From Naegleria gruberi (taxonomy: Eukaryota): a stretch of DNA of 64,000 nucleotides. How positions within the stretch are numbered: position 1 is the first letter of the stretch; the number at the start of each line of letters is the position of its first letter. A model generated the notes under the pieces. It searched no databases, was not told where the DNA came from, and worked only from the letters and a program-made list of their open reading frames with translations. The DNA lies in the NCBI GenBank assembly GCA_000004985.1, contig GG738933.1, one strand, 5' to 3'. Made by a program: the position numbers and the translations under genes. Below are positions 14,096-59,894 of the stretch, in pieces.

Positions 14096-14420
14096 TCTTT
14101 GTGTTGTTTTTTTTGTGTCGATTAATTTGATTAACAGCTGACAGTTCCTTACCACTCATTATTTATAACAAACACACAAACAGTTGCAGTTAGCATGAAA
14201 AACGCTCGATGATGTGCTTGTGCAAACAAGTTTAAGTGGCAAGTAGAAAATGTGATGGAGAATTGAGAAGGTTGCCCTTTAAGGCAATAACAATTTTGGC
14301 GGGAAAGTTTGATGTGAGGTGAAGTGTTTGCCTAGACAAAATGTATTGAGGTGCGTCGAGTTGTTTCTTGTTGATTTTAAAAGGCTTGTTAGAGGTGGGT
14401 ATCTATCAGAAATCAAAGAT

Positions 14421-17400: not shown

Positions 17401-18199
17401 CATTTGACGTATTTATCTCTTTGATCATTTCTTCTCTTTTCTTCTTACCAATATATGATCTCCAATTTAAATGTGATTTGAATTCAATATCAATGTAAAA
17501 AGGGATGTGATCATTACTTGTGAGCGGTGGAAGGAGTTCTTCTTTGATAACCTTAATATCTTTAGACACGAAAATGTGGTCTAATCTTGAAGTGGTGATT
17601 CTATTCTGTTGTCTTCTAATGTAAGTCTTATTATTAGTCTTATATTCTGTTAGTTGGAGTAGATTAAATAGCCAGCACCATTCTTTATCTCTACCGTTTG
17701 AAGGATTAATGGTATTGATATTAAGATCTCCATTAATTATGACATGTTCATCTCTACATGTCAGTACTGCATTTGTTATACTGTTCATGGCTTCAACATC
17801 ATTTTCTTTATCATCAACTCTTCCACTAAGATATGGAGTGAAAATATTAATTGGTATACCTTTGCTTTCGAATCGTGTCCATTGAAGAACACCTGGAATT
17901 AGATTGATATTAGTAATATTTCTCTTGTGAGGGTTGTTAAGGAAGTGCATAACAGCCGTCCCTTTTTTTCCTTTCGTTGTATTCATTAAGGAGTTAAATA
18001 ATATATAGCCTGTTCCTGAATTTTTAACTTTATATTCTAGATCAGGAGTATTTAAATGAGTTTCGGTTAACGAAATCATGTGTATTTTATGATGAAGACA
18101 CATTGATTTCACTTCTGGTGTAACCGATTTCTTACTAGCATGTTTATACAGGCCGTTTACATTGTAACACGCTAGTCGTAAATTACTATAATTACTCAT
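14471..18199 (-). CDS. Retrotransposon ORF2: apurinic-like endonuclease, reverse transcriptase, RNase H and a C-terminal zinc finger.
   Basis: N-terminal LACYNVNGL...LTETHL...SRLDHIFVS (EEP/APE). RT motif GLCCFADDMNIVCD. RNase H IHTDGSKLAGKTGMGI...VAEIGAII...IHTDSKVAI. C-terminal CSDCNCPSNLEHYIHECP. Confidence 0.9.
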   Translation of the reverse strand: MSNYSNLRLACYNVNGLYKHASKKSVTPEVKSMCLHHKIHMISLTETHLNTPDLEYKVKNSGTGYILFNSLMNTTKGKKGTAVMHFLNNPHKRNITNINLIPGVLQWTRFESKGIPINIFTPYLSGRVDDKENDVEAMNSITNAVLTCRDEHVIINGDLNINTINPSNGRDKEWCWLFNLLQLTEYKTNNKTYIRRQQNRITTSRLDHIFVSKDIKVIKEELLPPLTSNDHIPFYIDIEFKSHLNWRSYIGKKKREEMIKEINTSNANTFQELNAEIQNNIAKYGTKVDRLGGSIISSIFKGKIRKLENKIMGKLEDPNVGLDEISELQTILKETHIQSCKEIKEQLTDKYNNSHASHMYQFDRKLHSKEIIWKELPFGEQEILDYFSKKFTTSNQTPTFMPSPSTITSGPRDIGRISYRDVKETIKRMKSNTPGQDEISLDIIKGLKLEKLALIVEEFNKCLTQGDIPQEWKHGWVKLIPKREVKTLGDIRPITILPIFYRILFNLIAHKLCEWASSQINMRQQAFINNRNTMNHGIVLSSLALKTRRRTFILVNLDIEGAYDAVEMPVIRMALNHCKFPTPLTDFIINAYSNHSLQLEIDKHLSNNFTKTRGIPQGCPLAPLIYDCITQLIIDKAIDQWQLPIEPSELNANEIGLCCFADDMNIVCDRFTNYNGRLDNIDDWLSQLLFKLNAKKSIATLLPTKSKIIPKIKQVPIPIQKNLRVLGHYPWEDKLVKEDIESKIAKFNESLKYFPILKLQPHNLRQVLHAKVISLFTHLSKLNVIPPSLVSRIDICIRNVLRTKLKLDRTTKTAFFHLPLEEGGLGVPSIEEFTDRLNLRTLSLIANSNNKLVQKAFKFGISHTNDNSNNIFIQWMSILQKYNLDFKKNHTKFRLKKVNETNRCFIIHTDGSKLAGKTGMGINIYESGGRLSPCKSLSLRINNEYSNNVAEIGAIITAMKLLPNGTTARIHTDSKVAIDVLSRKYKGNFLPFKTEFFNIQKEKNISVYIIKVKGHEDKENIIVDRLAKDGTERDKIFDIKSLLTNQYLLMKNDIVIFDCKRMTVNRQLKEMHEAIDSNPNFIPNQSWSSINVAYLKSRLSPKTKYQIWRNASNSHIKYTQKKDELNPTCSDCNCPSNLEHYIHECPRLDNQRRYCQNRLTEILDRPECSLSPIQEIPFQYSYVLYFHHSGITFFENEYIDKIPNHNVLKKWPEIQAAISKFIGRAFLIYQIDSKPIYKRSEK

Positions 18200-19836
18200 T
18201 TAGAAAGAGTACAAGATGATGAGCTTTTTGATTCTTCATCATCTTGCATAATAGAATTATTAGTACTATTATTTATATAATGGGAGATTTTGTCAATAAG
18301 TTCCATTGTATCAGCTAATGCTTTCTTAAAATCACGCAGTTCAGTTTCAATATTAGATAGTCTAGTTTCAAATAGATTGGTTGTTGTATTAATAGTAGGA
18401 GTAACTACAGAATTAGTGGTTGAACTGGTATTATCGTTAGATTGTATAGGATTGATCATAGGATTAGTTACTTCCGGTAATTTAGAGTTAGTTAGAAATG
18501 GATATTGTTTTTGTTTTCTTTCAATTATTTCATCTAATTGTTTAATAGATGGTACGAAACAGTAACTGGTTCCATCAGTAATGTTTTGTTTGGTATTGAG
18601 AACAATTTTCTTGTCAATAAATAGATTCATTTCGTCAATATTTGAATGGACGACTTTACATAATTTAAAGGTAGTGGTATTGGATTTGTTTTTGGATTCA
18701 GTTATCATGCATTGGTTAGTATTGAAATCTTTTTTAATGCGTTCGTATACACGAGTAACACCATCGATGATTTCCTTGTTTGTAAAGGTAGGTGGAAATA
18801 AACATTCTGAAACATTAGTAGGAGTTTCATTACGCAATTGTTCAACAGATTTGTAATTAGTTAAATTAAGCTTCTTTCTAATAACTTCGCACACATCTTC
18901 GTTTTCGTATGAAACTCTAATTATATATTTACCATGTGATTGGTTTGTATACATTTGGGAGATAAGTATAGTATTATCGTTATTAACTGAGTGTTTGATT
19001 AGTGATTTAATCATATCAATGTGTTGTGAATATATGTGTGTAGAGTGAGTTAGAGCGTACAAGCTATGCTCGAATACAGCAGGTGATGGGAAGAATTTCA
19101 ATATTAAATCATTGTGTACACTATCAAGCATATCTTTGCAAAGAATATAATTGTCATTACTATTGCAATGAAGATTAATGACATTACTAGTTTGGGGTCT
19201 TATTTTAATGGTGGCAAATTCCCCAAAGATGTCCATAATTTGTTCCATGAATTTGTTATTAATTCTTTCATAGCAGATAATATTAAGTGAATGTGTCAAA
19301 TCGAATTTCTTATTTTGCTTGACTGGTTTTTTACCATAGAATGAAATTGAGCGTTTCATTTTGATTTGTTTTGCTATAGTTTGTTTGATACTTGGTTGAG
19401 CTTTTATAGGGTGATACTTCACCATATCCAAATATGGAGTAAGTTGTAGTTTGGTATTTTGCTCAATAGGGTTCTTACTACATTCATATTTTGGTTTAAT
19501 ATTACTAGTAATGGAATGAATTTGTTGATTTCTATTTTGGGGAGTTGACTTAATATTTTGGATTTCTGAAGTAGGTTTTTTAAATGAATCAGTAGAAATG
19601 TTAGTGGTAGAAGTATCTTCTTGATTAATATTATCAACTTTAACCTTTACATCTTTGTCTTGTACAAACTCGGATTTAAACATTATTTTGTCGTAAATCT
19701 TTTGCATAGTTTCCATGTATTTTTGAAGACGAATATTTTCAATCCGATATGAATCGACTGCTTGTTCTAACACAAGAATCCTGTTAGTCAGCTGCAGACA
19801 ATTTATTGGATCAGGAGGGCGGTCATGTAAAGGCAT
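18196..19836 (-). CDS. Retrotransposon ORF1, 546 aa, with an N-terminal coiled coil. Its stop overlaps the ORF2 start (ATGA).
   Basis: ATG at 19836..19834. Plus-strand tcat at 18196..18199 reads ATGA on the minus strand, giving ORF1's TGA over ORF2's ATG. Confidence 0.8.
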   Translation of the reverse strand: MPLHDRPPDPINCLQLTNRILVLEQAVDSYRIENIRLQKYMETMQKIYDKIMFKSEFVQDKDVKVKVDNINQEDTSTTNISTDSFKKPTSEIQNIKSTPQNRNQQIHSITSNIKPKYECSKNPIEQNTKLQLTPYLDMVKYHPIKAQPSIKQTIAKQIKMKRSISFYGKKPVKQNKKFDLTHSLNIICYERINNKFMEQIMDIFGEFATIKIRPQTSNVINLHCNSNDNYILCKDMLDSVHNDLILKFFPSPAVFEHSLYALTHSTHIYSQHIDMIKSLIKHSVNNDNTILISQMYTNQSHGKYIIRVSYENEDVCEVIRKKLNLTNYKSVEQLRNETPTNVSECLFPPTFTNKEIIDGVTRVYERIKKDFNTNQCMITESKNKSNTTTFKLCKVVHSNIDEMNLFIDKKIVLNTKQNITDGTSYCFVPSIKQLDEIIERKQKQYPFLTNSKLPEVTNPMINPIQSNDNTSSTTNSVVTPTINTTTNLFETRLSNIETELRDFKKALADTMELIDKISHYINNSTNNSIMQDDEESKSSSSCTLSK

Positions 19837-40566: not shown

Positions 40567-42114
40567 ATGGGCAACAAACTATCATCACCACTCTCCTATT
40601 TTTCTAACGGCACAAATAATAATGATAGTAATGATAACAATGATGATAACGATGATGAATATTCATCAAGTTCCGATCATCATAAACGTCGTCAAAAAAT
40701 AGAAGCAAAAGGTGGTTATGTATCGGTTCTCTCATATCATGATCAATTATTATTGGATCATTCACAAGTGTTGCAATGTAAAGCATTATTTCAGGCATTT
40801 GGTGAACATCAATTTGAAATTCAGGGAAATATCAATGCAAATATTTCAAAATATGTGCAGGGAAGTGAATATATTGTGAAAATTGCAAGTGGTGGGCATC
40901 ATACTGTATTATTGACGAGTTTGGGAAGGATTTTATCATTTGGAAAGAATTTGGATGGTCAAGTTGGATGGAAAACTGAGCTCAATCATTCGAATGATAT
41001 TGGAGAAGCAAAACCACTTTACAAATATACAAATGAGTTTGCTGTGGATGTGTGTTGTGGAAATAATCATACTGTCATTTTGACTAATCTTGGAAATTTA
41101 ATGGGATGTGGTTGGAATGCATATGGTCAACTTGCAGAAGGTCCACACAGTTCTCAATCATTGGATTATATCAAATTTAAAGCAAAAATTAGAATGGTTA
41201 GAGCTGGTAATAATGCTACTTGTATTTTAGATGCGGATGGAAGACTTTATTTGAGTGGAACTTTGCACATGACAGAATGTAGACTTGGAGAATTTACTTT
41301 AATGGATGATTTCTCTGCCAAGCTGTCAAAACATGAAAAAATTGTGGATTTTCAAGTTGGTGGCAGACAGGTAGTGGCTGTCTCATCAAAAAATAAGGTT
41401 TTCATCTTGGGAGAGGATTATATTGACAGAGGAGGTTCCAATTATAAGAGATTTACCAATGTGACAAGCAAGTTAGGATTTGATCCAATAGAATTGAAAA
41501 GCTTTTCTGTTGGTCTCTATCATTGTCTGTTCCTCACACATTCTGGAAGAATGTATGCAACTGGCTATAATGGATATGGTCAACTTGGAACTGGTGATTT
41601 TCAAGATTTGAATACACCAAAAGAAATTACCAAATTTTACAAAGTTGACCCAGAAAGTATCAAGAAAGGCATCACTGCAGAACAAGATAAGATTGAATAT
41701 TATGAATGTGCAGTTGCAAAAGATCCTGAATTCTACTCTGATGTTCACTTTATTGAGAAGAATGAATTTATAACAAGTATTCTCGCTGGATCATGTCATA
41801 GTTTGTTTGTGAGTAATTTGGGAACTATTTACGGTTGTGGTTATAATGCTTATGGTCAATTGGTGCTTCCACTCGAAGTGGTGGATGAATATGACGATGA
41901 TGCCGTTCCAGAACCAAAGGAAAAGAATCCAGATGTGAAACAGTTATTAATCGATACCACCCGTTCCAGTAATTTCATACTCTTTTCAAACTCTGCTGCA
42001 AATATTACTATTTTGGCTGAGAAACAAGCTATTAATCTTTGGATGTACAAGTGCTTGAAAAACAGAGCTATTGGAGGGGAATTGGGCGATGTTGTCTTTT
42101 CTTTTGATCAATAA
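40567..42114 (+). CDS. RCC1-repeat (beta-propeller) protein with an N-terminal MGNKLS myristoylation-like motif.
   Basis: Repeats GGHHTVLLTSLGRILSFGKNLDGQVG, CGNNHTVILTNLGNLMGCGWNAYGQLAEG, YHCLFLTHSGRMYATGYNGYGQLGTGD and GSCHSLFVSNLGTIYGCGYNAYGQL. Confidence 0.7.
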   Translation: MGNKLSSPLSYFSNGTNNNDSNDNNDDNDDEYSSSSDHHKRRQKIEAKGGYVSVLSYHDQLLLDHSQVLQCKALFQAFGEHQFEIQGNINANISKYVQGSEYIVKIASGGHHTVLLTSLGRILSFGKNLDGQVGWKTELNHSNDIGEAKPLYKYTNEFAVDVCCGNNHTVILTNLGNLMGCGWNAYGQLAEGPHSSQSLDYIKFKAKIRMVRAGNNATCILDADGRLYLSGTLHMTECRLGEFTLMDDFSAKLSKHEKIVDFQVGGRQVVAVSSKNKVFILGEDYIDRGGSNYKRFTNVTSKLGFDPIELKSFSVGLYHCLFLTHSGRMYATGYNGYGQLGTGDFQDLNTPKEITKFYKVDPESIKKGITAEQDKIEYYECAVAKDPEFYSDVHFIEKNEFITSILAGSCHSLFVSNLGTIYGCGYNAYGQLVLPLEVVDEYDDDAVPEPKEKNPDVKQLLIDTTRSSNFILFSNSAANITILAEKQAINLWMYKCLKNRAIGGELGDVVFSFDQ

Positions 42115-42143: not shown

Positions 42144-44903
42144 TCATTGTTGGTTTCCTTTATTCAATCTTCTCATAATCTTAACCAACAGTTTGGGTGA
42201 TACATGCTCAAAAGCTTCGTCTGGGTAGGTTTGCAAAATGATTGTGGCATATTTGCTGGCAAACTCTACCAAATGTTTTCCAAATAAAGTTACAAACTCG
42301 TCATTTTGATTTTCCTCTCTAGAATAACAGCTTGCCATCAATATAAAGCTCTCCACTGTGATATAACCCTCAATAGAATTAATAATATGATTTGATAATT
42401 CTGGAAATCCAAATATCCGCGACAAGTTCAGCAAGGGAAGTAAAAGATGAACTGGAGGATCTTCCCACAACCCATAACAAAATTTGAGTAAAATTGTGCA
42501 AATCTCCATCAAGGTATTTGGATCTATAGTTTTCCCATCAATACCATTAAGTTTTGCAATTTCTGGCTGTATGCAGTGGATCAAATTGAAATTTGTAGCG
42601 TGTATCATGGCTTTCAATTCAGAAAGTAATGAACAACGTGAACAAATAACTGTCTTGTGTAGTCTCATATGTTTTTCCTCGGTTAAGAATATATTAATGT
42701 CAGTATTTACAGCATTGTAGTGCAATTTTTGAAGAGCAATACGAACGTTTGGCTCACTCACAGGATTCAATATTGGAATGTTGAGCTTGAATTTTGATAA
42801 TTGATCGGCAGAGAGGAAGAATTTGAACTTGTTCAGCCTTCCAGCAAAGCAAATATGATTTTCACCATAGCATCTAACAATATCAAAACAATACTTTAGA
42901 GCATAGTGAAGCAATGCGTCGTCAGCTATTTGGACTTTCTCGTACAGGCATTCTATAGTTGTACTAATGTTAAGTGGTGAAAGCTTGTCAATTAGAATAT
43001 TTACAAGACAACTCTTGAGCTGAATAAATGTATCTCTGAAAAAGGATAATACATAGATGATTTCCACAATCTCCACAGTATCCAGAGTCATTATTGGTTT
43101 GGAATAGAGTAGAATATCTATCAAATTCTGCACATGTTTTAAATTGGATTCCTTATCATCTTTGACTAATTTTTCTAGAATTGATACAAAATCTGGTGCA
43201 ATAAAGGGAAGAATTGGGCCAAATGCTATACACTGCAATCTATCGTTAAAGTCCTGACTGTATTTGTGCAGAGGTATCGATGAATATCTACTAGAAGGAG
43301 AGTAGTATACCATTGGATTATTATCTTTGCATACTACACGATTAACATAAAAATTACCACTAGTGTCCACAACCTCAAACACTGATCTCTTCTTTTCTCC
43401 ACAACAAACAACTTCATGAAGACATGTTATAGCAAATGTACAATTTTTACCACTCGAAAAATCAATAAAAGGAATTCTCGAAGGAACCTTTTCAAAAGCT
43501 TCTCTATTGTTAAAATCTCCCAAACCTAGCTGTCCACACGAATTATCGCCACATACCCACAATTCTCCCATACTATTGAGAATGCATGTATTTGTCGTGC
43601 AGTCGATTTTTTGAATCGTGCCATACGTCCAGTTAATAACATTGGCCCCTGTTGTCATTGTTTGTTTACATGCAAGCTGTCCCAAATTGTTATTACCTCC
43701 CAAGACCAATTTTGTAGCTCCTTCTGCTGTTGTAATATGAACTACATAATGTTCCAATCCTAGATGAAAGTTTTCCACTCGATCATTCTTGGCTATATTT
43801 TCCAAGACCATAAATTCATTAGTTACACTAGTTTTCAAATAAATATGATTATTTTCAGTTAGAAAGGCAACATGGCCGTATCCAACAAATATTCTCTTTG
43901 GAATAATGTTTGGAGTTGGTAGGTCTTTCTTGGGCACTTTGGTAAATTTTCCAACACTGAAAGAAGCCCAAATTTCATCCTCTGTCGACAGGTAGTACCT
44001 AGTAACACCTCTTCCCTCTGCAATAATTTTCGGAGTAAATGGAAGAGTAATCTTTTTCAAGTTTTTCAAATCATTGTTCAATTCTTCCGATGAAATTGGA
44101 GTGCACTCAAAGAGCTCATTCTTAATTGTTTGAAGAAATATATAGGAAGAACTGTAAATTTCCTTAATTTCCTCTCCTTTTAAGATTTGTTTCAGGTTGA
44201 CACTTCTATTAATGGTTGGTCTACTTAGCCCTTTCAGTGTTTGTTTGGAACAACACATGATTGTGAAAGGACGTTCCAAATCATCAACTACCAATTGATT
44301 ACTATTTGTATTTACACCATTCGGATCCGAATCATCAGCTGTAGAGAAGGACGGAATAACAACATTCTGTCTTCCTTGTGAATTTTCTGATTTCATTTGG
44401 GAAGAACTGGACAAGATTGGACTCGAATTTGCTTCCACACCTCTCCTCGAAGAACTCCCTAGCGAAGGAGAACCATTCATCAGTACAGGACTGCTCACTG
44501 TAGTTGTTGCTGCTGATGTTTCCTTCATCTTCTTTGATGGTGTGCTGCTCTCCAATCGTTCTTGATGATTATTACTATTATTATCGGATGATGATGAAGG
44601 CAAGGATCTCTTTCTTGTATTCTCATGATTATTAAAAGAAGGAATAACAACAGGGGGAGTGTTATTAACTACAGCAGAAGTAGACGGAAGAATAGAAGAG
44701 GCTGATGATGAAGCCTTCTTCTTCTTTTCCTTTTGATGATCAATAACACCAATAATTTCAACACCCTGCGAGGATGAACAAATCTCATCGACATCATAAT
44801 CGTCCAAATTAATATCTAACTCATCTTCTTCATCTTCCAAATCAATTGTTGCTATAGGAGTTTGTGATTTTGTATTATTTAGTGATGATGAATGTGGTAG
44901 CAT
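42144..44903 (-). CDS. RCC1-repeat protein with a C-terminal BTB-like region (RCBTB-like architecture). The track start is TTG; the first ATG is at 44903.
   Basis: LVLGGNNNLGQLACKQ and WVCGDNSCGQLGLGDF are RCC1 blades. DINIFLTEEKHMRLHKTVICSRCSLLSEL is BTB-like. Confidence 0.6.
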   Translation of the reverse strand: MLPHSSSLNNTKSQTPIATIDLEDEEDELDINLDDYDVDEICSSSQGVEIIGVIDHQKEKKKKASSSASSILPSTSAVVNNTPPVVIPSFNNHENTRKRSLPSSSSDNNSNNHQERLESSTPSKKMKETSAATTTVSSPVLMNGSPSLGSSSRRGVEANSSPILSSSSQMKSENSQGRQNVVIPSFSTADDSDPNGVNTNSNQLVVDDLERPFTIMCCSKQTLKGLSRPTINRSVNLKQILKGEEIKEIYSSSYIFLQTIKNELFECTPISSEELNNDLKNLKKITLPFTPKIIAEGRGVTRYYLSTEDEIWASFSVGKFTKVPKKDLPTPNIIPKRIFVGYGHVAFLTENNHIYLKTSVTNEFMVLENIAKNDRVENFHLGLEHYVVHITTAEGATKLVLGGNNNLGQLACKQTMTTGANVINWTYGTIQKIDCTTNTCILNSMGELWVCGDNSCGQLGLGDFNNREAFEKVPSRIPFIDFSSGKNCTFAITCLHEVVCCGEKKRSVFEVVDTSGNFYVNRVVCKDNNPMVYYSPSSRYSSIPLHKYSQDFNDRLQCIAFGPILPFIAPDFVSILEKLVKDDKESNLKHVQNLIDILLYSKPIMTLDTVEIVEIIYVLSFFRDTFIQLKSCLVNILIDKLSPLNISTTIECLYEKVQIADDALLHYALKYCFDIVRCYGENHICFAGRLNKFKFFLSADQLSKFKLNIPILNPVSEPNVRIALQKLHYNAVNTDINIFLTEEKHMRLHKTVICSRCSLLSELKAMIHATNFNLIHCIQPEIAKLNGIDGKTIDPNTLMEICTILLKFCYGLWEDPPVHLLLPLLNLSRIFGFPELSNHIINSIEGYITVESFILMASCYSREENQNDEFVTLFGKHLVEFASKYATIILQTYPDEAFEHVSPKLLVKIMRRLNKGNQQ

Positions 44904-45212
44904 CTCTTTATCCTCCAACCTATTTAGTTTAATAGTAGCAGTACAACAACACAATAACAAGCCTGGAAATTACATGAGCGGCAAGGAGAACTAGCCGTTG
45001 CTTATTTTTGTTTGTTTTTTTATTAAAATTTTTTTAAATTCAAAAAAAATATCAGTACAATTGTCTTCCACTTCTTCGTCTCTTGATTGTCAACATGTAT
45101 TAGCTTACTAGAAGAAGTTTGCAGATTGGGATGTACTTTTGACATGATTCTCTTGTTGGAATTTTACCTTCTCAATTTTGATGTTTGTTGTTATCATCAA
45201 GATGGCAAATAA

Positions 45213-48898: not shown

Positions 48899-50272
48899 TA
48901 TATCGTATTCGAAATAATTTCCTTTCTTTTCAATGATGACAATTTATATTGGAAAGAAAATTTATTAAATTGTGCATTAATTTCAAAACAATGGTTGAAA
49001 ATCATCAAGGAACGAAAAGATCTTTCTCTGATCATGATTGACAAACCAATTTCGAATCGATTAATGAATTTGACTAATAGTCAATTCTTGAAATGTTTTA
49101 CAAAAATTCAATTTATTTGTGTTTCGATAGAGATGATGAATTTTATGAAAGTTTTCGAAAGAATGGAAAGATTGAATGAACTTACACTTGAAACAAATGA
49201 TACTAGCAGTAGTATTGAGGCGATTAGTGAGATGAGACAGTTGACTAAATTGGGAATTAATGGAATTCAAGATAATGATATGAGACAGATTGGCATGATG
49301 AGTCAGTTGACTGAACTAGATATTGAGAGGTGTGATATTAGTGGAGAAGGAATCAAATTTTTGATTGTAATGCCTCAATTGACCAGTCTTAACGGTGGTT
49401 ACAATTATTTACAATGTGGTGATGCCAAGCTCATTAGTGAAATGAGCAAATTGACCAAATTAGATATCAACACAAACGAAATAGGTACGGAAGGTGCAAA
49501 ATATATATCCACATTGAACCAATTAACTGAGCTCGATATTGGAAACAATAATATTTTGAGTGAGGGAGCAAAATTTATTAGAAACTTGAAGAATTTGGTC
49601 AAGCTCAATGTGGAAAGAAACAACATTGGAGACGAGGGTGCTAATTACATAAGCGAAATGAAACAGTTGACTGCTCTTGACATTGGATTCAACATGTTTG
49701 GTTTTGAAGGAATTAAAGCTATCAGTCAATTGAACCATTTGATAGAACTTTCTATACAAGGCAATGAAATAACTATTAATGGAGTGAAATTGATTACTGA
49801 AAAGAAGAATTTAACCTCTCTTAACCTTGGAAATATTTTCTACGATACAAAAACTCCTGAACTTTCACAACTTGTAAGCCAAATGCACCAATTGACCACA
49901 TTGGACATTGAAAATAATAACATTGGACCAGAAGTAGCAAATTTATTAGCAGAAATGAAAAATCTCAAACATCTCAACATTGCATTCAATAATATTGAAA
50001 AGGAAGGTCTATCTCACATTACTCAATTGACACAATTAACATCTCTTAATGTTTGTGGAAATCAAATAGATGATGAAGGAGCTAAAATTGTGAGCTCAAT
50101 GAAACAACTCTTAAAATTGAATATTGAGGAGAATTTTCTAAATGAGGGCGGATGTGAAACAATTATTGAGATGCCTCAATTGACACAACTTTATATTTCT
50201 TCCAATCGAATTGGAGAAAAACAAGTGGAAATGATTTGTGGAAAGAAAAATTTGAGAGATATAAGGATATAG
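48899..50272 (+). CDS. Leucine-rich-repeat protein (RNI-like LRRs) with an F-box-like N-terminus. The start is unresolved; the frame opens at 48899 without an ATG, and a possible 5' micro-exon ATGATGGAAAG|GTAAGA lies at 48867.
   Basis: More than 12 LRRs of the form LT.LDI..N.I..EGAK.IS.M. N-terminal LLNCALISKQWLKII resembles an F-box. Confidence 0.55.
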   Translation, partial: YIVFEIISFLFNDDNLYWKENLLNCALISKQWLKIIKERKDLSLIMIDKPISNRLMNLTNSQFLKCFTKIQFICVSIEMMNFMKVFERMERLNELTLETNDTSSSIEAISEMRQLTKLGINGIQDNDMRQIGMMSQLTELDIERCDISGEGIKFLIVMPQLTSLNGGYNYLQCGDAKLISEMSKLTKLDINTNEIGTEGAKYISTLNQLTELDIGNNNILSEGAKFIRNLKNLVKLNVERNNIGDEGANYISEMKQLTALDIGFNMFGFEGIKAISQLNHLIELSIQGNEITINGVKLITEKKNLTSLNLGNIFYDTKTPELSQLVSQMHQLTTLDIENNNIGPEVANLLAEMKNLKHLNIAFNNIEKEGLSHITQLTQLTSLNVCGNQIDDEGAKIVSSMKQLLKLNIEENFLNEGGCETIIEMPQLTQLYISSNRIGEKQVEMICGKKNLRDIRI

Positions 50273-50364: not shown

Positions 50365-52146
50365 ATGTTTAAACGAAAGTTTGGCGTTATTAAAAGTAAA
50401 ATTTTAAACAGTGAGGAGTCTCAACCTGCCATCACTGATCAACAAACAAATATTGTCGGAAAACAATCTGGAATAATTTCCAAAATGTTTGGTGGAAATG
50501 TTTCGAATAGAAACGTTTCGTATAGTAATTGGCATAATATTGAATTAATTATTTTAAATATTTTACAATTTATCGGAGAAGGATTAAGAATTGATGAAAT
50601 TCTTGACTTTTCTCAAGTGTGTTCTTGTTGGAGAACAGTTTGCAAATTAGAAACAGTTTCGTTAACATTTTCGAATAGATTTACATACCTTGTTACGAAA
50701 CCAGTCAAATGTTATTCACTGGAGGGCAATTTCCCTAATCTAGAGTTCATTCAATTCTTTTCCAAAGCAGTTATTGAATTAGAAAGAGATGTTTCAATTA
50801 AAATTATTGAAAAGTTTACAAAATGTAAAGAATTAGAAATTAGATTTAATTGGAAACTTGATTGGAATTCAATAGAAAATAGTTTGGAAAGAATCGAGTC
50901 GTTGAAACTTGTTTGTAAATTTTGTGAAACAAATGATTCATGGATGAATCAAGTCACAAGAATTTTTCCAAATTTGAGACATTTGACAGTCAAATATTTA
51001 TACATGTCGAATAGATCAGTTGAAGTTCTCATCAATGATTTGTATCCCAAGTTGGAAAGTTGCAAAATTTATATTCATCATCAAAATACCGAATGCCCAA
51101 TTGAGAAATTATTAGATTCGAATAGATTATGTGAAAAAATGAAAGATTTCGCTTGTGTGTTTGATGATGGTTCCAAGACGACCTTAAAAATTCCAAATGA
51201 GAAGTATTTTCCAAATCTTGAATGTCTCTCTACTCAAACATCCTCTTCCCCAATTTCATTTCAAAATTTGGTAAAATTGCGAGTTCATTGCATTTCAATT
51301 TTGGAAAAGAGTAATCTTCCAAATTTGGAAGAATTGGAATTGAGGCCACGATCTCTCCCATTGGATGAAATTATAATTCCAAAATCTATGAATGCACCAA
51401 AATTGAAATTTATTTACATGAAAACTTTGAATGGTGGCTTGAAGAATTTTGATCAATTTACAAATTTGGAAAAATTAATTATTCACAGTTCATCTTCATT
51501 AGGAAAAACTCCATTGACCATTCTTGAAAATTTACCAAAACTCAATGATATAAGAATTTATTCATATTTTGGAGGTAATTCATTTTCAAAACTTTCCAAA
51601 CAAATCAAATTTACCAAATTAGTAATTAAACCAAAGTATGGGTATGATGAAAAACCTTATTTGGACATGGAGGATGTGAAATACATTTCAAAATTGGAAT
51701 CCTTACAATATTTAGAATTGAATGTAGCGGATCAGGAACAATTTGATATTCTAATCAATGCAAATTTACCAAATTTAACACAACTCAATTTCAATAATCA
51801 TTTGACAAGTGAAAATATCATTTCAATTTTACAATCTAAATTTCACAAACTCAAAACGTTGGGGATTACTCAAGCTGATAAGCCAATGATGAAATTATTT
51901 AAAAAATATTCACTTCCTAATTTGGATACTGTGAAATTTAGAAAGAGAAGAGCTTGTACTCCATTTAAAGCTTTGAAACCATTGTTGAAATCAAATTATA
52001 TTCGAAACATTAAGTATTATTGTGGAAAACGAGATTTACTCAAGTTGGAAAAGTTTTGTGAAAGAAATCAGAGAATCAAATTGGAATTGTTTAGTGAGGC
52101 AACCTCTGTTTATCCAAATTTTATTTGTAAAATTACTAAGATTTAG
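50365..52146 (+). CDS. F-box-like / LRR protein, 593 aa.
   Basis: N-terminal ELIILNILQFIGEGLRIDEILDFSQVCSCWRTVC (F-box-like); irregular LRRs through the C-terminus. Confidence 0.55.
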   Translation: MFKRKFGVIKSKILNSEESQPAITDQQTNIVGKQSGIISKMFGGNVSNRNVSYSNWHNIELIILNILQFIGEGLRIDEILDFSQVCSCWRTVCKLETVSLTFSNRFTYLVTKPVKCYSLEGNFPNLEFIQFFSKAVIELERDVSIKIIEKFTKCKELEIRFNWKLDWNSIENSLERIESLKLVCKFCETNDSWMNQVTRIFPNLRHLTVKYLYMSNRSVEVLINDLYPKLESCKIYIHHQNTECPIEKLLDSNRLCEKMKDFACVFDDGSKTTLKIPNEKYFPNLECLSTQTSSSPISFQNLVKLRVHCISILEKSNLPNLEELELRPRSLPLDEIIIPKSMNAPKLKFIYMKTLNGGLKNFDQFTNLEKLIIHSSSSLGKTPLTILENLPKLNDIRIYSYFGGNSFSKLSKQIKFTKLVIKPKYGYDEKPYLDMEDVKYISKLESLQYLELNVADQEQFDILINANLPNLTQLNFNNHLTSENIISILQSKFHKLKTLGITQADKPMMKLFKKYSLPNLDTVKFRKRRACTPFKALKPLLKSNYIRNIKYYCGKRDLLKLEKFCERNQRIKLELFSEATSVYPNFICKITKI

Positions 52147-52164: not shown

Positions 52165-53306
52165 TTAAATTTCAAATATTTCATTCAGCATTTGATAAAC
52201 TTGTTCAGTTTTAAATGCAGATATTACATAATACTTGACAACTCTCCTCTTCACATCCAATTCCAAATACTTTTTCACGATAAACTCAACAATGCTTTCA
52301 ATACTCGTTTCGTCTCCTTTAAATTCTGAAACAAATCTCGAAAAGGAAATTCCCTTTTTAATCTTTTCTTCCAATACTTCAAATTTACTGAATATCAAAT
52401 AGAGTGTATGCTCTGAAACCAATGGGGATCCATACCATTCCTCAAAATTCGATAATCCTTCATTGAATCTTGGAGTAATGTCATCTTCATAACACAACTC
52501 ATCAAATTCACTTAGAGAAATGACGAATCCAATGTGGAGTTTTTGAGAGTAAGTATTATGGAGTCTGTTCCATTTGGAACGTTCGGTACGTTGTCCACCT
52601 GTTAGAGTATTCGAATTGTTGAGTTCATTAAAAATGTCAACTTACCAGTGTCAATAATTGCCTTTTTGTGATTGTTGACATATTTGAAGGGTGAAATTCC
52701 AGTTGTTTTGCGAGAAGCAAAGAAGAAATCATCAAAATTGAGTTGAAAATCATTTTTTAACAATCTTGAAGAGTTTTTCTTGTCAGTAAAATAATTAATA
52801 CTTTCCAAAAATGGAATTCTTTGCCTATTCTGGAATAATTCATTTTGAAATCCTTCATCTTGATACATTTGAAATATCAATTTTGCTAATTCATTGTTCC
52901 ACACACTCTCTGGAAAAAGAGAATACTCCTGACCAGAGAGTAGTTTCACCCTATTCAAATAATTATTCGAATTTTCCTTTTCCTTAAATTTCATTTCTAA
53001 TCCTTCAAAATTCAATAAACAAGATAAAAGCAACGAGTAAATATTTCTATTAAATCGATTAATATTACTTTCAATCCCAGCTCTCTTCAATATCGAAGCT
53101 GTCAAAAATCAAGTTCACCAAATGTGTCAATAATTCAACAACCTACTCTTTCCACACCCACCAGTCCCTATCAATGCCAAAATACAATCCGTTTCAGCAA
53201 TCACATTCTCAACAAGTGGTGATTTCACTTCAGGTTCCTCCACCATTGAAAAAACTTCACTTTCTGAACTTGGAAAGAATTTCAAGAGTTTTGTGAGTTG
53301 TTTCAT
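52165..53306 (-). CDS. Heterotrimeric G-protein alpha-subunit-like protein with degenerate guanine-specificity motifs. Three exons: 53147..53306, 52646..53098 and 52165..52598; introns 53099..53146 and 52599..52645.
   Basis: P-loop LIGTGGCGK|TSILK; switch I SRKTTGI; switch II IIDTG|GQRTERSKW (split across an intron); FLNKKD replaced by LIFSKFEVLEEKIKK; TCATDT replaced by ISAFKT. Junctions have GTAGGT and GTAAGT donors and preserve the frame. Confidence 0.7.
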
Positions 53307-53525: not shown

Positions 53526-54608
53526 CTAATATAGAAAGTTGGGATTGAAGACGCCAGGTAAAAGAGATGAACAGTACATGACCGGAGTTATGTCATGATC
53601 TCTTTCGAATAGATGATCTTTCCATAGAGAGTGAATATTCTCAACAATTCGTCTAGTTTCTCCATCTTTTTCATTTTCTGGAATAGTTTGCAATCCAATC
53701 GAAACACCAAAGTCTCTGAAACCTAATCTTCTTCTAGTACTCTTAATCGTGCTTTCGAATATCTCTTCAATATTAGAAATGGCAACTTTTCTCATATGAT
53801 TCGCCCAATCTTCATCAGGAAACCAACTGGTCAACCAAAGAGTTTCTCCCAAATCCAGAGGATCCGAACTCTGATACATTAAATACTTTCCCATCACCAT
53901 TCCCTTCATTTCTTCAATTTCTCTATTCAAAACACTTCCATCCACATTCTTTCCTTCTTTTAATTGCTGGTTGACCAATTGTAAAAGTCTATAAGTAACA
54001 TAACCATCATACGGATCCAAATTTCCTTCAGATCTCACAACTGGTCTCGAGCCATCAATGGAAATCTTCCAGAACATCCTCAATCCACGTGAAGAACTAT
54101 GATTGATAAACTTGTTATGCATGGATTGAGCCATTTCAATTGCCCATTCATTGTATTTCACATCTCGAGTGATTAGTGACGTTCTGTTGAGGGCAAACAT
54201 CCATTTGGTGAGATAGTGAAAGTATTGACCATCGCCATCTTCGTCATCTTCATCGGCTTCCTTGCCAATTCGTAAACCTCCCAACAGGGGATGTTCAGCA
54301 TTGGATTTTCCTTTCGAATAATTTAGTAGATTAGTTATTAGAAACTGCATGTACTTACCCAAATAATGTTGCAATGAACGATCCTTTCCAAGAACTTGAT
54401 GCACCTCTTCAATAAGTGCCTTAGCTTGTTCCAAATACGAATCTTGACCACTTTCCACATGCAACGAAAGGAAATTACAAACTGCAAACGCATCAGTCCA
54501 CAAGTATCGAGTTTGTGTTTCAGATTTCAATGGTTTGGGTTTGTAGTGTGCTCCACTGAAATTGCCATACACTTGTTCCATCACTTCAATGCATTTATCT
54601 TTTAACAT
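53526..54608 (-). CDS. Hypothetical 360-aa protein, possibly an (alpha/alpha)-barrel type enzyme.
   Basis: Long ORF with an ATG start; YLWTDAFAV and W-rich segments; no confident family assignment. Confidence 0.45.
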   Translation of the reverse strand: MLKDKCIEVMEQVYGNFSGAHYKPKPLKSETQTRYLWTDAFAVCNFLSLHVESGQDSYLEQAKALIEEVHQVLGKDRSLQHYLGKYMQFLITNLLNYSKGKSNAEHPLLGGLRIGKEADEDDEDGDGQYFHYLTKWMFALNRTSLITRDVKYNEWAIEMAQSMHNKFINHSSSRGLRMFWKISIDGSRPVVRSEGNLDPYDGYVTYRLLQLVNQQLKEGKNVDGSVLNREIEEMKGMVMGKYLMYQSSDPLDLGETLWLTSWFPDEDWANHMRKVAISNIEEIFESTIKSTRRRLGFRDFGVSIGLQTIPENEKDGETRRIVENIHSLWKDHLFERDHDITPVMYCSSLLPGVFNPNFLY

Positions 54609-54967
54609 TTTTTTTTTGAGAGTTGTTGTTTTTGATTTTGGAGAATTAGTAGAATTGCTTTAAAAGGAAATTTATAAAATATCAAATTACTTGATTTGGT
54701 AGAGTCTACAATTAGAATGAGAATATCAAAACCCAGTTTGTTTAAGGGTCCCTAGAGAGCGACGCTTATCTTCCTCACTTTAATGAATTTATCAAGTGTT
54801 GACAGAATTTCTTTAAATGTCAGTTATTTTTTTTGACAATTATGGAGAATCTTATGAGCTATGATATTCTTATTATGAAATACATAATATTGCTCATTAA
54901 AGAACTTGAGATTTTTGTAACCAAGTTCACAGTCAACTCAAAAACAAAAATTATCAAAAAAAAAAAA

Positions 54968-56152
54968 ATGCTCAAAATCTACCACCACGATCACGCCAAC
55001 GATAGATCATCAACCAATCACCAAGAACCCTTTCATATTGTAAATACGAACACTTGCAAAACCATTAACATTCCCAATTTTGAGAGAATTAAAAAAGTTG
55101 TAATCAATCAGACAAGTGTACATGTCCTATCGGAGAGTGGTCAGGTTTATATTTTTAAAGATGGTTTTGATAGTAGTAGTAGCAGTAGTAACATAACAAT
55201 TCAAGTTCCTTATCTTCTCGACACTACAACAAATGGAAAATTATTGATTGAAGATGTTTCGACATTTTCGGAGGGATCAACACTTTATTTGGTTCGTGAT
55301 GAGATGAATAATACATTTCTCTATGGAAGTGGCAGTACGGCCTATGATTGTTTTGGAGGTAATCGTCAGTGTATGAATGAGGATGGTACGGAGAAATTTA
55401 CTCTCCTTTACACTCCTCCGACCGTAAATGGATACAGACATCAAATTACACATATTGCATCATGTTATTCCTTTACAATAATCGTTTTGGATTACTGTGA
55501 TATTAGAATTTCAGGTCAGGATTGGGTGAATTCTGTTCACACGGTAATGGGTTGGCATGTAAGCCAGTTTTATTGTGAAAAGAAAATTAAGAAAATTGAA
55601 TGTGGAAGCTTTCAATTTTTTGTAATATTTGAAGATGATACTGTAATGTTTTGTGGAGATAATGGAAGTAATCAGATGCCACATACTGAAGGTACCGCAC
55701 ATTTTTCTGTGGATTATGAAATGAAAATTTCTGAAGCTTTTGGAGGATACGATTGCTCGGTAGTGAGATTTGCAAACACTACTCCAACTTATGAGAATTA
55801 CATGTTATATGGAAGTGCAATGCTGGAATATAAGAATTTGAAACAGTTTTTGAGCTGTTATCCAAAATTTTCTGAATCCAATTCAGACAATGCAAAGATT
55901 AGATATATTAAGGATATATTCTTTATTGAATTCAATGGCTTATTTTATGCGATAAGCAATAGTCATAATATGAGATTTGTGGTGGATGCTTCAAAAGAAT
56001 TTGATGGAATTCCTGGAAACAATTATCAAATTACTGCACATTCAAGTACAGTTGTTTTTTACAAAACATTTTCAGCAGTCATTTATCCCAAGTTAGCTAC
56101 TTATCTTAGAAATCAATCAATACTCACTGATTGCTATTTTCAGTTTGAATGA
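54968..56152 (+). CDS. RCC1-like repeat protein. The start was placed at the ATG after the A14 tract; the track's upstream extension merely translates the A-run.
   Basis: HVLSESGQVYIF, LYGSGSTAYDCFGG and FCGDNGSNQMPH are RCC1-blade-like. Confidence 0.45.
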   Translation: MLKIYHHDHANDRSSTNHQEPFHIVNTNTCKTINIPNFERIKKVVINQTSVHVLSESGQVYIFKDGFDSSSSSSNITIQVPYLLDTTTNGKLLIEDVSTFSEGSTLYLVRDEMNNTFLYGSGSTAYDCFGGNRQCMNEDGTEKFTLLYTPPTVNGYRHQITHIASCYSFTIIVLDYCDIRISGQDWVNSVHTVMGWHVSQFYCEKKIKKIECGSFQFFVIFEDDTVMFCGDNGSNQMPHTEGTAHFSVDYEMKISEAFGGYDCSVVRFANTTPTYENYMLYGSAMLEYKNLKQFLSCYPKFSESNSDNAKIRYIKDIFFIEFNGLFYAISNSHNMRFVVDASKEFDGIPGNNYQITAHSSTVVFYKTFSAVIYPKLATYLRNQSILTDCYFQFE

Positions 56153-56960: not shown

Positions 56961-59894
56961 TTACTTAATTTGGTAGAGTCTCCAATCGATTAAAGTACTT
57001 GTGTTGATTGAATGCCAGATCCACTCAGAAGAAACTACATTGACTTGTGGATTTTCTGAAACAAGTTTGGCAATCTCTGGTGTAATTCTCGATGATGATG
57101 TGATAATATGAGTGATATCATCACTAAATGATGATTCTACAATTCCATCAAATGCAATAATATATCTAGTGTGCATCTTGAGAGCAGGAACATCCTTATG
57201 AATGTACATGACCATATCAGTGAATAAATCACACAATGAAGTAAGTTCTGGTGGTGCAGTGAGAGAGGAGCTTTCTGCTTTCACTATTGTTGGTTTAACA
57301 AGTTGAGCCTTCTTGGTAGGATAATGATATGGTAATGTATCAACCAAATATCCTTTGGTGGCACATTCAAAGACCCAATATTTGGTAACAATGAGAGATC
57401 CAAGATTGAAACAATGTTTAAAATCTTCAGTTTCTGATTCACAAATGAGGTGAGTATTTGCATTTCCAATAATGTTCCAATTATTTGTTACACTTCCTCC
57501 ATTGTTGGTGATAAACTTGCTAATTGCCTCCTTCTCAGAATTGCTGTAACCAGAAATTAAAGCAACAACATTTCTGAAAAAAGTGTTATTGCTGGAACTA
57601 TCTTGCTCTTCAACTTTGATTGATGTTTGTGAAGATGATTTGGTCATCTTATTTGTTGATGTTGTTGGAGCATTATCATCAGATGTATCCATCTTATGAG
57701 ATGAATCTGAGGCAGCAGCCGAGTTATCAGTTGTAGGTCTATTAGCCAACTTATTTTTTGATTCATTAACTCTATCCTTATCATCTCTATCCTTTGTATA
57801 GATGAAAACAGCAAATCCCTTGTTTGAAAGATTTTCCTTCAAAAGTTGTTCAACTCTATTCCAATCCAAACCAGAAATGGCGTGATGCAATCTATATAAA
57901 TGGAATGTACCAATCTTTTTTTGATTCATGTAGGTAGCACATTTCTTTAAACATTCATCCAAAGCATGATAGTCAACTTTTGGTGCAGATCCTTTCTTGA
58001 CAAATTGAAGACATACCATATTACATAAATGATTTGGTAATGCTACAACAATTTGAGCATCACCAATTATGTTCATATCATCAGTGTAAGCCTTCTTAAT
58101 ATCTTCACCATACAAGAGTTCAATATTTCCCATTGATCCTTTATCTGACCATCTACTAGAGTCATCTACACAATGTGAAATTAGTTTTTCTTCCTTATTC
58201 ATTGGCATTTTCATAAAATCACCATAAATGTAATAGATTTGTTCTGGAGTAGAAGAGTTATTAATAGTATCAATATCAGATAATTTGATACCAATAGTTG
58301 ACTTTTTAGCTTTCTTTGCTTTTGGATCATCATCATCATCAGAATTATCTGAGGATTTTGATTTTTTCTTATCATTAGGCTTTTTAGCTGACTTTTTATC
58401 ATCCTCATCATCTTCATCATCTGAGGAATTTATCTTCTTCTTTCTTGAATTTTTCTTTTTCTTTGAGCTTGAATCTGATTCATCATCTTCATCATCAGAT
58501 TTTGACTTTTTAGCTCTGGAACGTTTCTTTTTATCTTTTACATCTACACTTTCATCAGAATCATCTCCTGCATCTCCATCTCCAAAAATAGGTACTAAAC
58601 CTTTTCTATTACTTTCATTTTTCAATTTGATAATTTCTTGATAATTGGTATGATCTAAAACATCCTTATCATCTCTAATTTTTGTAACTCTAGGGAATCT
58701 GACAGAAATTGGTCTGTCTTTTCTTGAGGAAACTGAAAATTCAGCTCCTTGAATTTCCCAAACAACACTCTTTTTTGGATCTTTAACAATAAAATCAGGT
58801 ACAAGAGCATTAGTATGAATATCAATATCATCTGGAACCAATGAAGGATCCTTACTGATTCTTTTCATATTTGATTTCAATTCTTCATTCAATGTTTCAA
58901 TAGTTTGATCATCGTGTCCGTTACCACATTTACAAATAATTCTCCACTTTCCTAATTTCTTGTCAAAAGAACCCATCATGAATACAGACATTAAACCACC
59001 TTTACTACCTGTACCAAGATAAGCTCCTAGAACAACAAGATCTACACTATCTGCCATACCTTTCAAGTAATCTTTTTTCATTTTAAGCCAATGTCTAGCA
59101 TTAGGTTCATATGGAGAACATAAATCTTTTAACTAATATGTAAAATTGTTAATAAAAAAATTAATAATAAATTTGAAAATAATACATACCACTAAACCTT
59201 CTTCACCCTTCTTAATCATTGCACTCATTTCAGCAGAAACAATAGCTTCTCTTGTTTGTTTTGAACCCTTTACAACCAAATATTCACCTAACATTACTCT
59301 ATGTTTGATTGGATTTACAATTTTAGTCATTAATGCCTTTCTCTTATATAAAGGAACTGAAAGGAGTGATTTACCATTATAATACAATATATCAAATAAA
59401 AATATAGTTGTTACAGCATCTTTGTGATCTTGTCTAACATTTTTACCAAGTGTACCAAATGGAAGAATCTTATTTGTCTTTGTATCCATCATTAAAATTT
59501 CACCATCTAAAATTACAGATTCAACCTTTTCCTTAATAGCTTTAGAAATATACTTTTTTACAGATTTGATCTTATACTCTTGAACATCTTTCAAATTTCT
59601 ACTAAAATATTTGATTTCATCATTTTTTCTATCATAGTGAATTTGAATTCTTTCACCATCATATTTAAGTTCAGAATAAAAACCATTTGGACAACGAGCA
59701 ATAACATCATCATAAGTCTTACTTGGACGAGCAAGCATTGGTTTGACAGGATGGAAAAGTTTCATCTTGGTTGATATTTTAATCTTCTTAGGAGCCTTCT
59801 TATTCTTCTTTTTCTTTTTAGAATCATCCTCTGATTCTTCATCTACAAGTTCATCATCCCATGATGAAGATGTCACCAAAACAGATAAATCCAA
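56961..59894 (-). CDS. ATP-dependent DNA ligase with an adenylation (NTase) domain, OB domain, acidic/Lys-rich linker, TARG1-like macro domain and two BRCT domains. Intron 59133..59189. No DNA-binding domain is encoded upstream; the first in-frame ATG is at 59765 and the open frame continues to 59894 without an ATG.
   Basis: KPMLA; motif I ELKYDGERIQIH; motif IV EGLVVK; motif V DLVVLGAYLGTGSKGG; motif VI ISVRFPRVTKIRDDKD. Macro domain GDFMKMP...LISHCVDDSSRW..GSMGNIE...HHAISGLDWNRVEQLLKE, compared with TARG1 GDLF...LAHCISEDCRMGAGIA...IGCGLDRLQWENV. BRCTs VALISGYSNSEKEAISKFITNNGG...W and LFTDMVMYIH....W. Confidence 0.8.

Follow-up and report, generated by a model that had tools for sequence, protein, structure and literature searches.

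The window analysed here is a 64,000-nucleotide stretch of Naegleria gruberi contig GG738933.1 (assembly GCA_000004985.1), AT-rich at about 33% G+C. Its minus strand carries a G-alpha-like gene (53306-52165) with the ATG at 53306 and the stop codon TAA at 52167-52165. The three exons and gene ends proposed in the first-pass annotation were confirmed, with GT..AG introns of 48 and 47 nt, and the spliced product has 348 aa. Exon 1 (53147..53306) starts at Met1, stops after the first base of the Thr54 codon and encodes the P-loop GTGGCGK at 53168-53148. Intron 1 (53099..53146, 48 nt, GT..AG) lies in phase 1 in the Thr54 codon. Exon 2 (52646..53098) encodes the rest of helix alpha-1, the helical domain and switch I (ASRKTTGI); its last codons are Asp203-Thr204, followed by the first base of Gly205. 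Intron 2 (52599..52645, 47 nt, GTAAGT..AG) interrupts Gly205 of DTG^GQR, also in phase 1. Exon 3 (52165..52598) is one uninterrupted ORF that holds the rest of switch II (Gln207, 52593-52591), the G4 and G5 base-recognition motifs and the stop codon. No second G-alpha gene was found in the 64-kb window.

The nearest database protein is a 316-aa 'predicted protein' of N. gruberi (P0001), so that the window protein is already public as an uncharacterised, mis-spliced model. P0001 uses the identical intron 1 donor with an acceptor 96 nt further on (53003-53146, a 144-nt intron) and thereby lacks 32 aa (TSILKRAGIES...NFEG) comprising the P-loop Ser/Thr and helix alpha-1. Because these 32 aa line up, position for position, with the GK[ST] and helix alpha-1 found in other G-alpha proteins, and because a relative on an environmental contig (L004) has an intron at the position of intron 1, we prefer the three-exon model with its 48-nt intron; the alignments indicate that P0001 is mis-spliced at intron 1. 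The phase-1 intron in the Gly codon of DTG^GQR is common to the window gene and three relatives on environmental contigs (L001, L004, L005), and is absent at the locus of paralogue P0002 (L002).

Two LRR genes adjoin the G-alpha-like gene (48995-50272 and 50365-52146, both plus strand) and are the only LRR genes among the 28 large ORFs of the window. The nearer one, at 50365-52146, is convergent with the G-alpha-like gene and has an LRR_14 match, an F-box-associated LRR match and a weak F-box-like match. Directly upstream on the same strand lies a 360-aa ORF (53526-54608, minus strand) with no significant Pfam match, and three RCC1-like repeat genes flank the gene within 16 kb (40567-42111, plus; 42147-44960, minus; 54833-56149, plus). 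Further away, an ATP-dependent DNA ligase (adenylation, C-terminal, BRCT and LIG3-type BRCT domains) spans two adjacent minus-strand ORFs (56964-59081 and 59136-59894), presumably one gene with a short intron. A putative E3 ligase at 11945-14155 (minus) combines a U-box with ankyrin repeats. The 1242-aa ORF at 14474-18199 (minus; adjoining ORF 18199-19836, minus) has endonuclease/exonuclease/phosphatase, reverse transcriptase and RNase H domains, and is a non-LTR (LINE-like) retrotransposon, apparently intact.

Family membership and motif register

The Pfam G-alpha alignment that the first-pass annotation had suggested as a check gave a full-length match of the 348-aa protein to PF00503 (E = 1.6e-59; 202 bits, cut-off 48.8; profile positions 18-331 of 333). 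Its architecture is that of a complete G-alpha, with a helical domain inserted into the Ras-like domain; only 46 residues precede the P-loop, and the protein has no other Pfam domain. Of the solved structures, Naegleria fowleri G-alpha-7 (PDB 6NE6, E = 7.6e-32, colinear over residues 44-345) is the best relative; mammalian G-alpha-13, Go and Gq come next among the PDB matches. G-alpha-7 comes from the same genus, shares the Ras-like and helical architecture and aligns without gaps around G4 and G5. G-alpha-7, a self-activating G-alpha, differs in having NKHD at G4, the catalytic Arg181 and an acidic P-loop residue (GAGDSGKS), whereas in the window protein these are SKFE, Ser182 and GTGGCGKT, and the C-terminus is shorter.

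Motif register was taken from three agreeing alignments: phmmer alignments to 6NE6 and G-alpha-13, a MAFFT alignment with 142 other homologues, and an alignment of the clade described below. The 142 homologues were drawn from an exhaustive HMMER search of representatives, run with the mis-spliced P0001 as query. The P-loop GTGGCGKT was confirmed at residues 47-54, with Thr54 split by intron 1, as was switch II DTGGQRTERSKW with the catalytic Gln207, in which Gly205 is split by intron 2. The Mg-binding Thr185 (52706-52704, exon 2) is present, as in other homologues.

The first-pass annotation took the Arg of RKTTGI for the catalytic arginine of switch I, a placement that proved out of register by one. 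The spacing from Asp177 to Lys184 equals that of 6NE6 (D-FFFASR-K against D-VVRARI-K), and therefore Ser182 (52715-52713, exon 2) falls in the catalytic-Arg column. This column is Arg in 122/140 other homologues; Arg183 (52712-52710, exon 2) sits in the next, variable column. The window protein thus lacks the arginine finger; Arg183, one position after the canonical column, might partly substitute for it. The P-loop acidic residue that pairs with the catalytic Arg in G-alpha-i1 (the Glu43 position) is Gly50 here. Across the alignment, Gly at this position and absence of the Arg tend to occur together (Fisher 4e-5, uncorrected for phylogeny). The catalytic motifs are thus not intact, contrary to the first-pass annotation: the arginine finger of switch I and its acidic partner in the P-loop are both gone.

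The G4 motif, SKFE, is encoded by AGT AAA TTT GAA at 52378..52389 (residues 275-278). All three alignments bear out the earlier claim that it occupies the NKxD columns, opposite NKHD of 6NE6 and NKTD of G-alpha-13, which disposes of a misassigned motif position as an explanation. Relative to NKxD, the canonical form in G-alpha proteins, the Lys is kept while Asn is replaced by Ser and Asp by Glu. The first position, Ser275, is N in 128, T in 13 and S in 1 of the 142 other homologues; the fourth, Glu278, is D in 140, A in 1 and N in 1.

The G5 motif, ISAF (52213..52224, residues 330-333), was correctly placed in the TCAT columns by the first-pass annotation, and its description there as degenerate was overstated, the Ser-Ala core being kept. 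The published G5 consensus is (T/G)(C/S)A (PMC11594714), and the Ser-Ala of ISAF agrees with it; paralogue P0002, whose NKMD is intact, reads ISAN. Among the other homologues, 117/139 have the Ala, 18/138 have Ser in place of the Cys, and 17/137 begin the motif with Ile. Since the Ala is kept and both Ser and Ile are common variants at the preceding positions, we do not regard ISAF as a degenerate G5. Of the two base-recognition motifs, G4 alone is atypical.

The termini also depart from the usual G-alpha pattern. Beginning with MKQLTK, the protein offers neither a Gly2 nor an early Cys for lipidation; an MG start occurs in 70 of roughly 112 other homologues whose N-terminal region aligns up to the P-loop. 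An N-terminal M[KR]xLxKL is common to the window protein, the L004 product (L004g) and P0002. At the other end, the G5 Ala is followed by only 16 residues, where other homologues have a median of 28; the C-terminal helix (alpha-5) is about 12 residues shorter than usual and has lost its receptor-contacting end. The protein has neither the lipidation site nor the full-length alpha-5 tail of G-alpha proteins.

Conservation between strains

Metagenome assembly ERZ929261 carries the same gene (L006) from a strain 97.8% identical in DNA. The two coding sequences differ at 10 sites, of which 9 are synonymous and one is a conservative Ser75Thr replacement (pN/pS 0.027; binomial P = 3e-6 for so few replacements). 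Introns have diverged further, with 5% substitutions and a 3-nt indel in intron 2 against 1% in the CDS, and indels are confined to the introns and the 5' flank, where there is one of 6 nt. SKFE, ISAF and both splice sites are unchanged. The gene is under strong purifying selection.

These data bear on whether SKFE could be an artefact or a sign of decay, that is, a sequencing error, a mis-modelled exon or a young pseudogene with an eroding G4. Errors do exist at this locus, since P0001 is mis-spliced at intron 1, and the changes of N to S and of D to E each need only a single base. SKFE is nevertheless identical in the independently assembled second strain, and the same type of G4 motif recurs in four other members of the clade. 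The first-pass annotation had allowed for a tiny missed exon or an alternative isoform that would restore NKxD; none was found, exon 3 being one ORF colinear with its homologues and aligned to 6NE6 without a gap at G4, and no [NT]KxD peptide is encoded on the gene strand between 50000 and 55500. A pseudogene is ruled out by the pN/pS. With SKFE kept in L006, the low pN/pS, the colinearity of exon 3 and the lack of an [NT]KxD peptide, we exclude sequencing error, pseudogene and missed exon, and give artefact or decay of any kind very little credence. The gene is a real, selectively maintained, atypical G-alpha.

A Naegleria-type clade of relatives

The exhaustive search returned few close relatives, and the clade that they form with the window protein comprises seven sequences. 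Three are N. gruberi paralogues, namely P0002/P0003 (G4 NKMD), D2VHI5 (P0008; TKYE) and D2VY36 (P0015; TKFE). The other three lie on environmental contigs: L004 (NKKD), a complete three-exon gene with both introns at the positions of those in the window gene, L005 (SKYE) and L001 (SKHQ). The N. gruberi paralogues are 34-38% identical to the window protein. Like it, they have DTGGQR, no Arg in switch I, SLSEFDELCYED following switch II and a G5 that is Ser-Ala or similar. None of the 6 members that cover the region has Arg in the Arg column (S, A, S, M, M, Y), and the columns D203, G205, G206, Q207, R208, E210, R211, W214 and K276 are invariant.

Clade members differ at the C-terminus. The three N. 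gruberi paralogues (P0003 for the P0002/P0003 pair) and the L001 product (L001g) have tails of about 200 aa with F-box or F-box-like and LRR matches that are consistent in position and below threshold. The window protein, which stops 16 residues past the G5 Ala, and the L004 and L005 products (L004g, L005g) end soon after G5 and have no such tail. We considered the neighbouring gene at 50365-52146 as a detached copy of the fused tails and rejected this, as pairwise BLASTP gave only E = 0.05-0.14; a tblastn extension past the stop codon of the G-alpha-like gene, searched for a tail remnant, returned noise. At the P0002 locus (L002, 1560-2195) the public model P0002 loses the reading frame at a splice after ...IDER. 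P0003, a read-through of the same locus, has an in-frame F-box-like/LRR tail whose frame is conserved in another species (L001), and the fusion of G-alpha to an F-box-like/LRR tail is probably the true gene there. A literature search found no description of G-alpha/F-box fusions in Naegleria.

Neither a profile search with the clade alignment nor a scan of JGI metagenome contigs found further clade members; both returned only distant G-alpha proteins of the DTGGQR type, all with Asp in G4. Among the nearest outgroups, which also lack the Arg, Asp is retained at the end of G4 in P0017 of Willaertia magna (TKYD) and in P0053 of Naegleria lovaniensis (THLD), and Asn stands there in N. lovaniensis P0114 (TKRN). 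At the L004 locus the downstream neighbour is unrelated and there is no shared synteny with the window, so that orthologue and paralogue are indistinguishable.

Within the clade, G4 takes two forms, NKxD in 2 members and [ST]K[FYH][EQ] in 5. Its first and fourth positions covary, N occurring with D (2/2) and S or T with E or Q (5/5), and the x position is aromatic or His in 5/5 variants. No Glu or Gln was found in the Asp column of the 142 other homologues or of 21 further metagenomic loci, and its presence here is therefore not the usual drift among G-alpha proteins that bind guanine. By neighbour joining, the window protein (SKFE) and L004g (NKKD) are sisters with 100% bootstrap, from which it follows that, among these seven sequences, the motif changed as a block at least once.

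Such a pattern could mean that the variant G4 is an adaptive alternative pocket for ATP, XTP or several nucleotides, making these proteins non-guanine switches on a G-alpha scaffold. The restriction of E/Q to this clade, the covariation and the block switch between sisters all favour this, as does YchF/OLA1, which has NxxE and prefers ATP (PMC8779481). The SKHQ member (L001) points the same way, since Gln would suit adenine or xanthine better than guanine. Glu, on the other hand, keeps the carboxylate that accepts the N1 and N2 hydrogens of guanine, and bacterial EngA GD1 has G4 = NKxE (PMC10448771); the Ser-Ala of G5, whose backbone reads guanine O6, is kept, and there are only seven sequences, with every tree node weak apart from the sister pair. 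The covariation itself, N..D against [ST]..[EQ] with an aromatic x, fits a changed pocket and a compensated one equally well. We consider a change of base specificity unlikely. The more specific proposal of an adaptive second G4 form, toggled as a block with NKxD in one clade and conferring a different preference (ATP, XTP or promiscuous), we hold to be quite unlikely; were it true, these would be the first natural G-alpha-fold switches without guanine specificity.

Because the G4 departure is real, kept in a second strain and recurrent in paralogues, a changed relation to the base is a legitimate and possible hypothesis from these comparisons, but the case for it is weaker than, and different from, that made in the first-pass annotation, which had combined degenerate G4 and G5 motifs with an intact catalytic set.

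Nucleotide recognition and proposed function

Our leading reading, to which we assign a probability of roughly 0.45, is that the window gene encodes a functional, lineage-specific divergent G-alpha paralogue of N. gruberi that would act as a slow-hydrolysing guanine-nucleotide switch uncoupled from receptors. Retention of guanine binding is the alternative we favour for the base, at a little under even odds, because the pocket keeps the G4 Lys, a carboxylate and the G5 backbone, and Glu can replace Asp. EngA GD1 binds guanine nucleotides. A D/E-type guanine recognition has been described, with which Glu is compatible (PMC11594714). EngA/Der GD1 (NKxE) and YchF/OLA1 (NxxE) share with the window protein a P-loop GTPase fold and Glu in place of the G4 Asp (PMC8779481, PMC10448771). 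Both are GTPases of the translation-factor class (TRAFAC) and not G-alpha proteins, and the consequences of their Glu disagree (ATP in the one, guanine in the other), so they serve as precedents only.

Conservation of the P-loop, Thr185, DTGGQ and the G4 Lys, together with purifying selection, makes it probable that the protein binds a nucleotide and that its switch II machinery is important. The opposite view is that of a nucleotide-independent, G-alpha-like scaffold, resembling the plant XLG proteins, with an affinity too low for binding in the cell and a role in protein-protein contacts only; the first-pass annotation had likewise raised a pseudo-GTPase. Both the G4 Asn and Asp are replaced and the arginine finger is lost, and the closest solved relative, N. 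fowleri G-alpha-7, is stable without nucleotide (PMC9283941). XLG2 acts independently of nucleotide (PMC8584482), and a passage of the same review that cites Anantharaman et al. 2011 reports deviant catalytic motifs for some of the Naegleria G-alpha proteins. Yet a protein that never binds nucleotide would have no reason to keep its phosphate motifs, and here the P-loop, Thr185, DTGGQ, the Arg, Glu and Trp of switch II and the G4 Lys are conserved across the clade at a pN/pS of 0.03. The loss of phosphate-binding motifs that marks a pseudo-GTPase is not seen, the P-loop, Thr185 and Asp203 being present and clade-conserved, and a protein without nucleotide is hard to reconcile with the conserved P-loop, Thr185 and DxxGQ.

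Comparison with plant XLG1-3 leads to the same view. Like the window protein, these are G-alpha proteins of an atypical kind whose nucleotide motifs deviate, and they may work outside the classical GTP cycle (PMC8584482). They differ in that they are extended at the N-terminus by a long Cys-rich stretch and that their phosphate and catalytic motifs are degraded, whereas the window protein has no extension and motifs that are intact save for the arginine finger. The combination of long Cys-rich extension and degenerate G-alpha domain that defines the XLG type is absent, and the two are not related as a subfamily. We regard the scaffold explanation as quite improbable.

Returning to the guanine-nucleotide switch, its mechanism would be as follows. 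The set that holds the phosphates and positions the attacking water is kept (GxGxxGKT, Thr185, and DTGGQ with Gln207), and a guanine nucleotide would be held through Lys276, Glu278 and the backbone at Ala332. Because Ser replaces Asn and the longer Glu replaces Asp, binding would probably be looser and exchange faster. Intrinsic hydrolysis is expected to be slow because the arginine finger is missing; mutants of G-alpha-s R201 and G-alpha-i1 R178 are the basis for this expectation. The protein would not be driven by a 7TM receptor and, with slow hydrolysis, may be mostly triphosphate-bound unless kept in check by its abundance or by a GAP, of the RGS type or another. G-alpha-i1 R178C is still accelerated by RGS proteins. 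Naegleria has very many RGS proteins, and some of its G-alpha proteins activate themselves and are regulated by RGS (PMC9283941). A switch that loads itself, hydrolyses slowly and works without a receptor would thus make a coherent picture. The F-box-like/LRR tails of the relatives and the two adjoining LRR genes hint weakly that the protein may signal by way of LRR or F-box partners.

Few molecular switches are understood as well as the G-alpha proteins, whose NKxD Asp is regarded as nearly invariant, in keeping with its presence in 140/142 of the homologues compared here. Lineage-specific diversification of G-alpha in N. gruberi is known (PMC3971589), and the same passage of PMC8584482, citing Anantharaman et al. 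2011, gives about 44 G-alpha genes for this species. As that passage already has some of the Naegleria proteins deviating in catalytic motifs, the present finding is incremental and does not define a new category. Our literature search found no published description of the recurrent [ST]Kx[EQ] form of G4 and its covariation, of the arginine-finger loss common to the clade together with a Gly-type P-loop, or of the link to F-box-like/LRR tails. Practical value is modest: P0001 can be corrected, and the window gene (SKFE) and L004 (NKKD) form a natural pair for mutagenesis or binding comparison. With its phosphate and water machinery under purifying selection, the arginine finger lost and G4 alternating between NKxD and [ST]Kx[EQ], the clade constitutes a natural experiment. 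It could inform how base recognition and hydrolysis are re-tuned on the G-alpha fold, and what roles receptor-independent G-alpha proteins play in protists.
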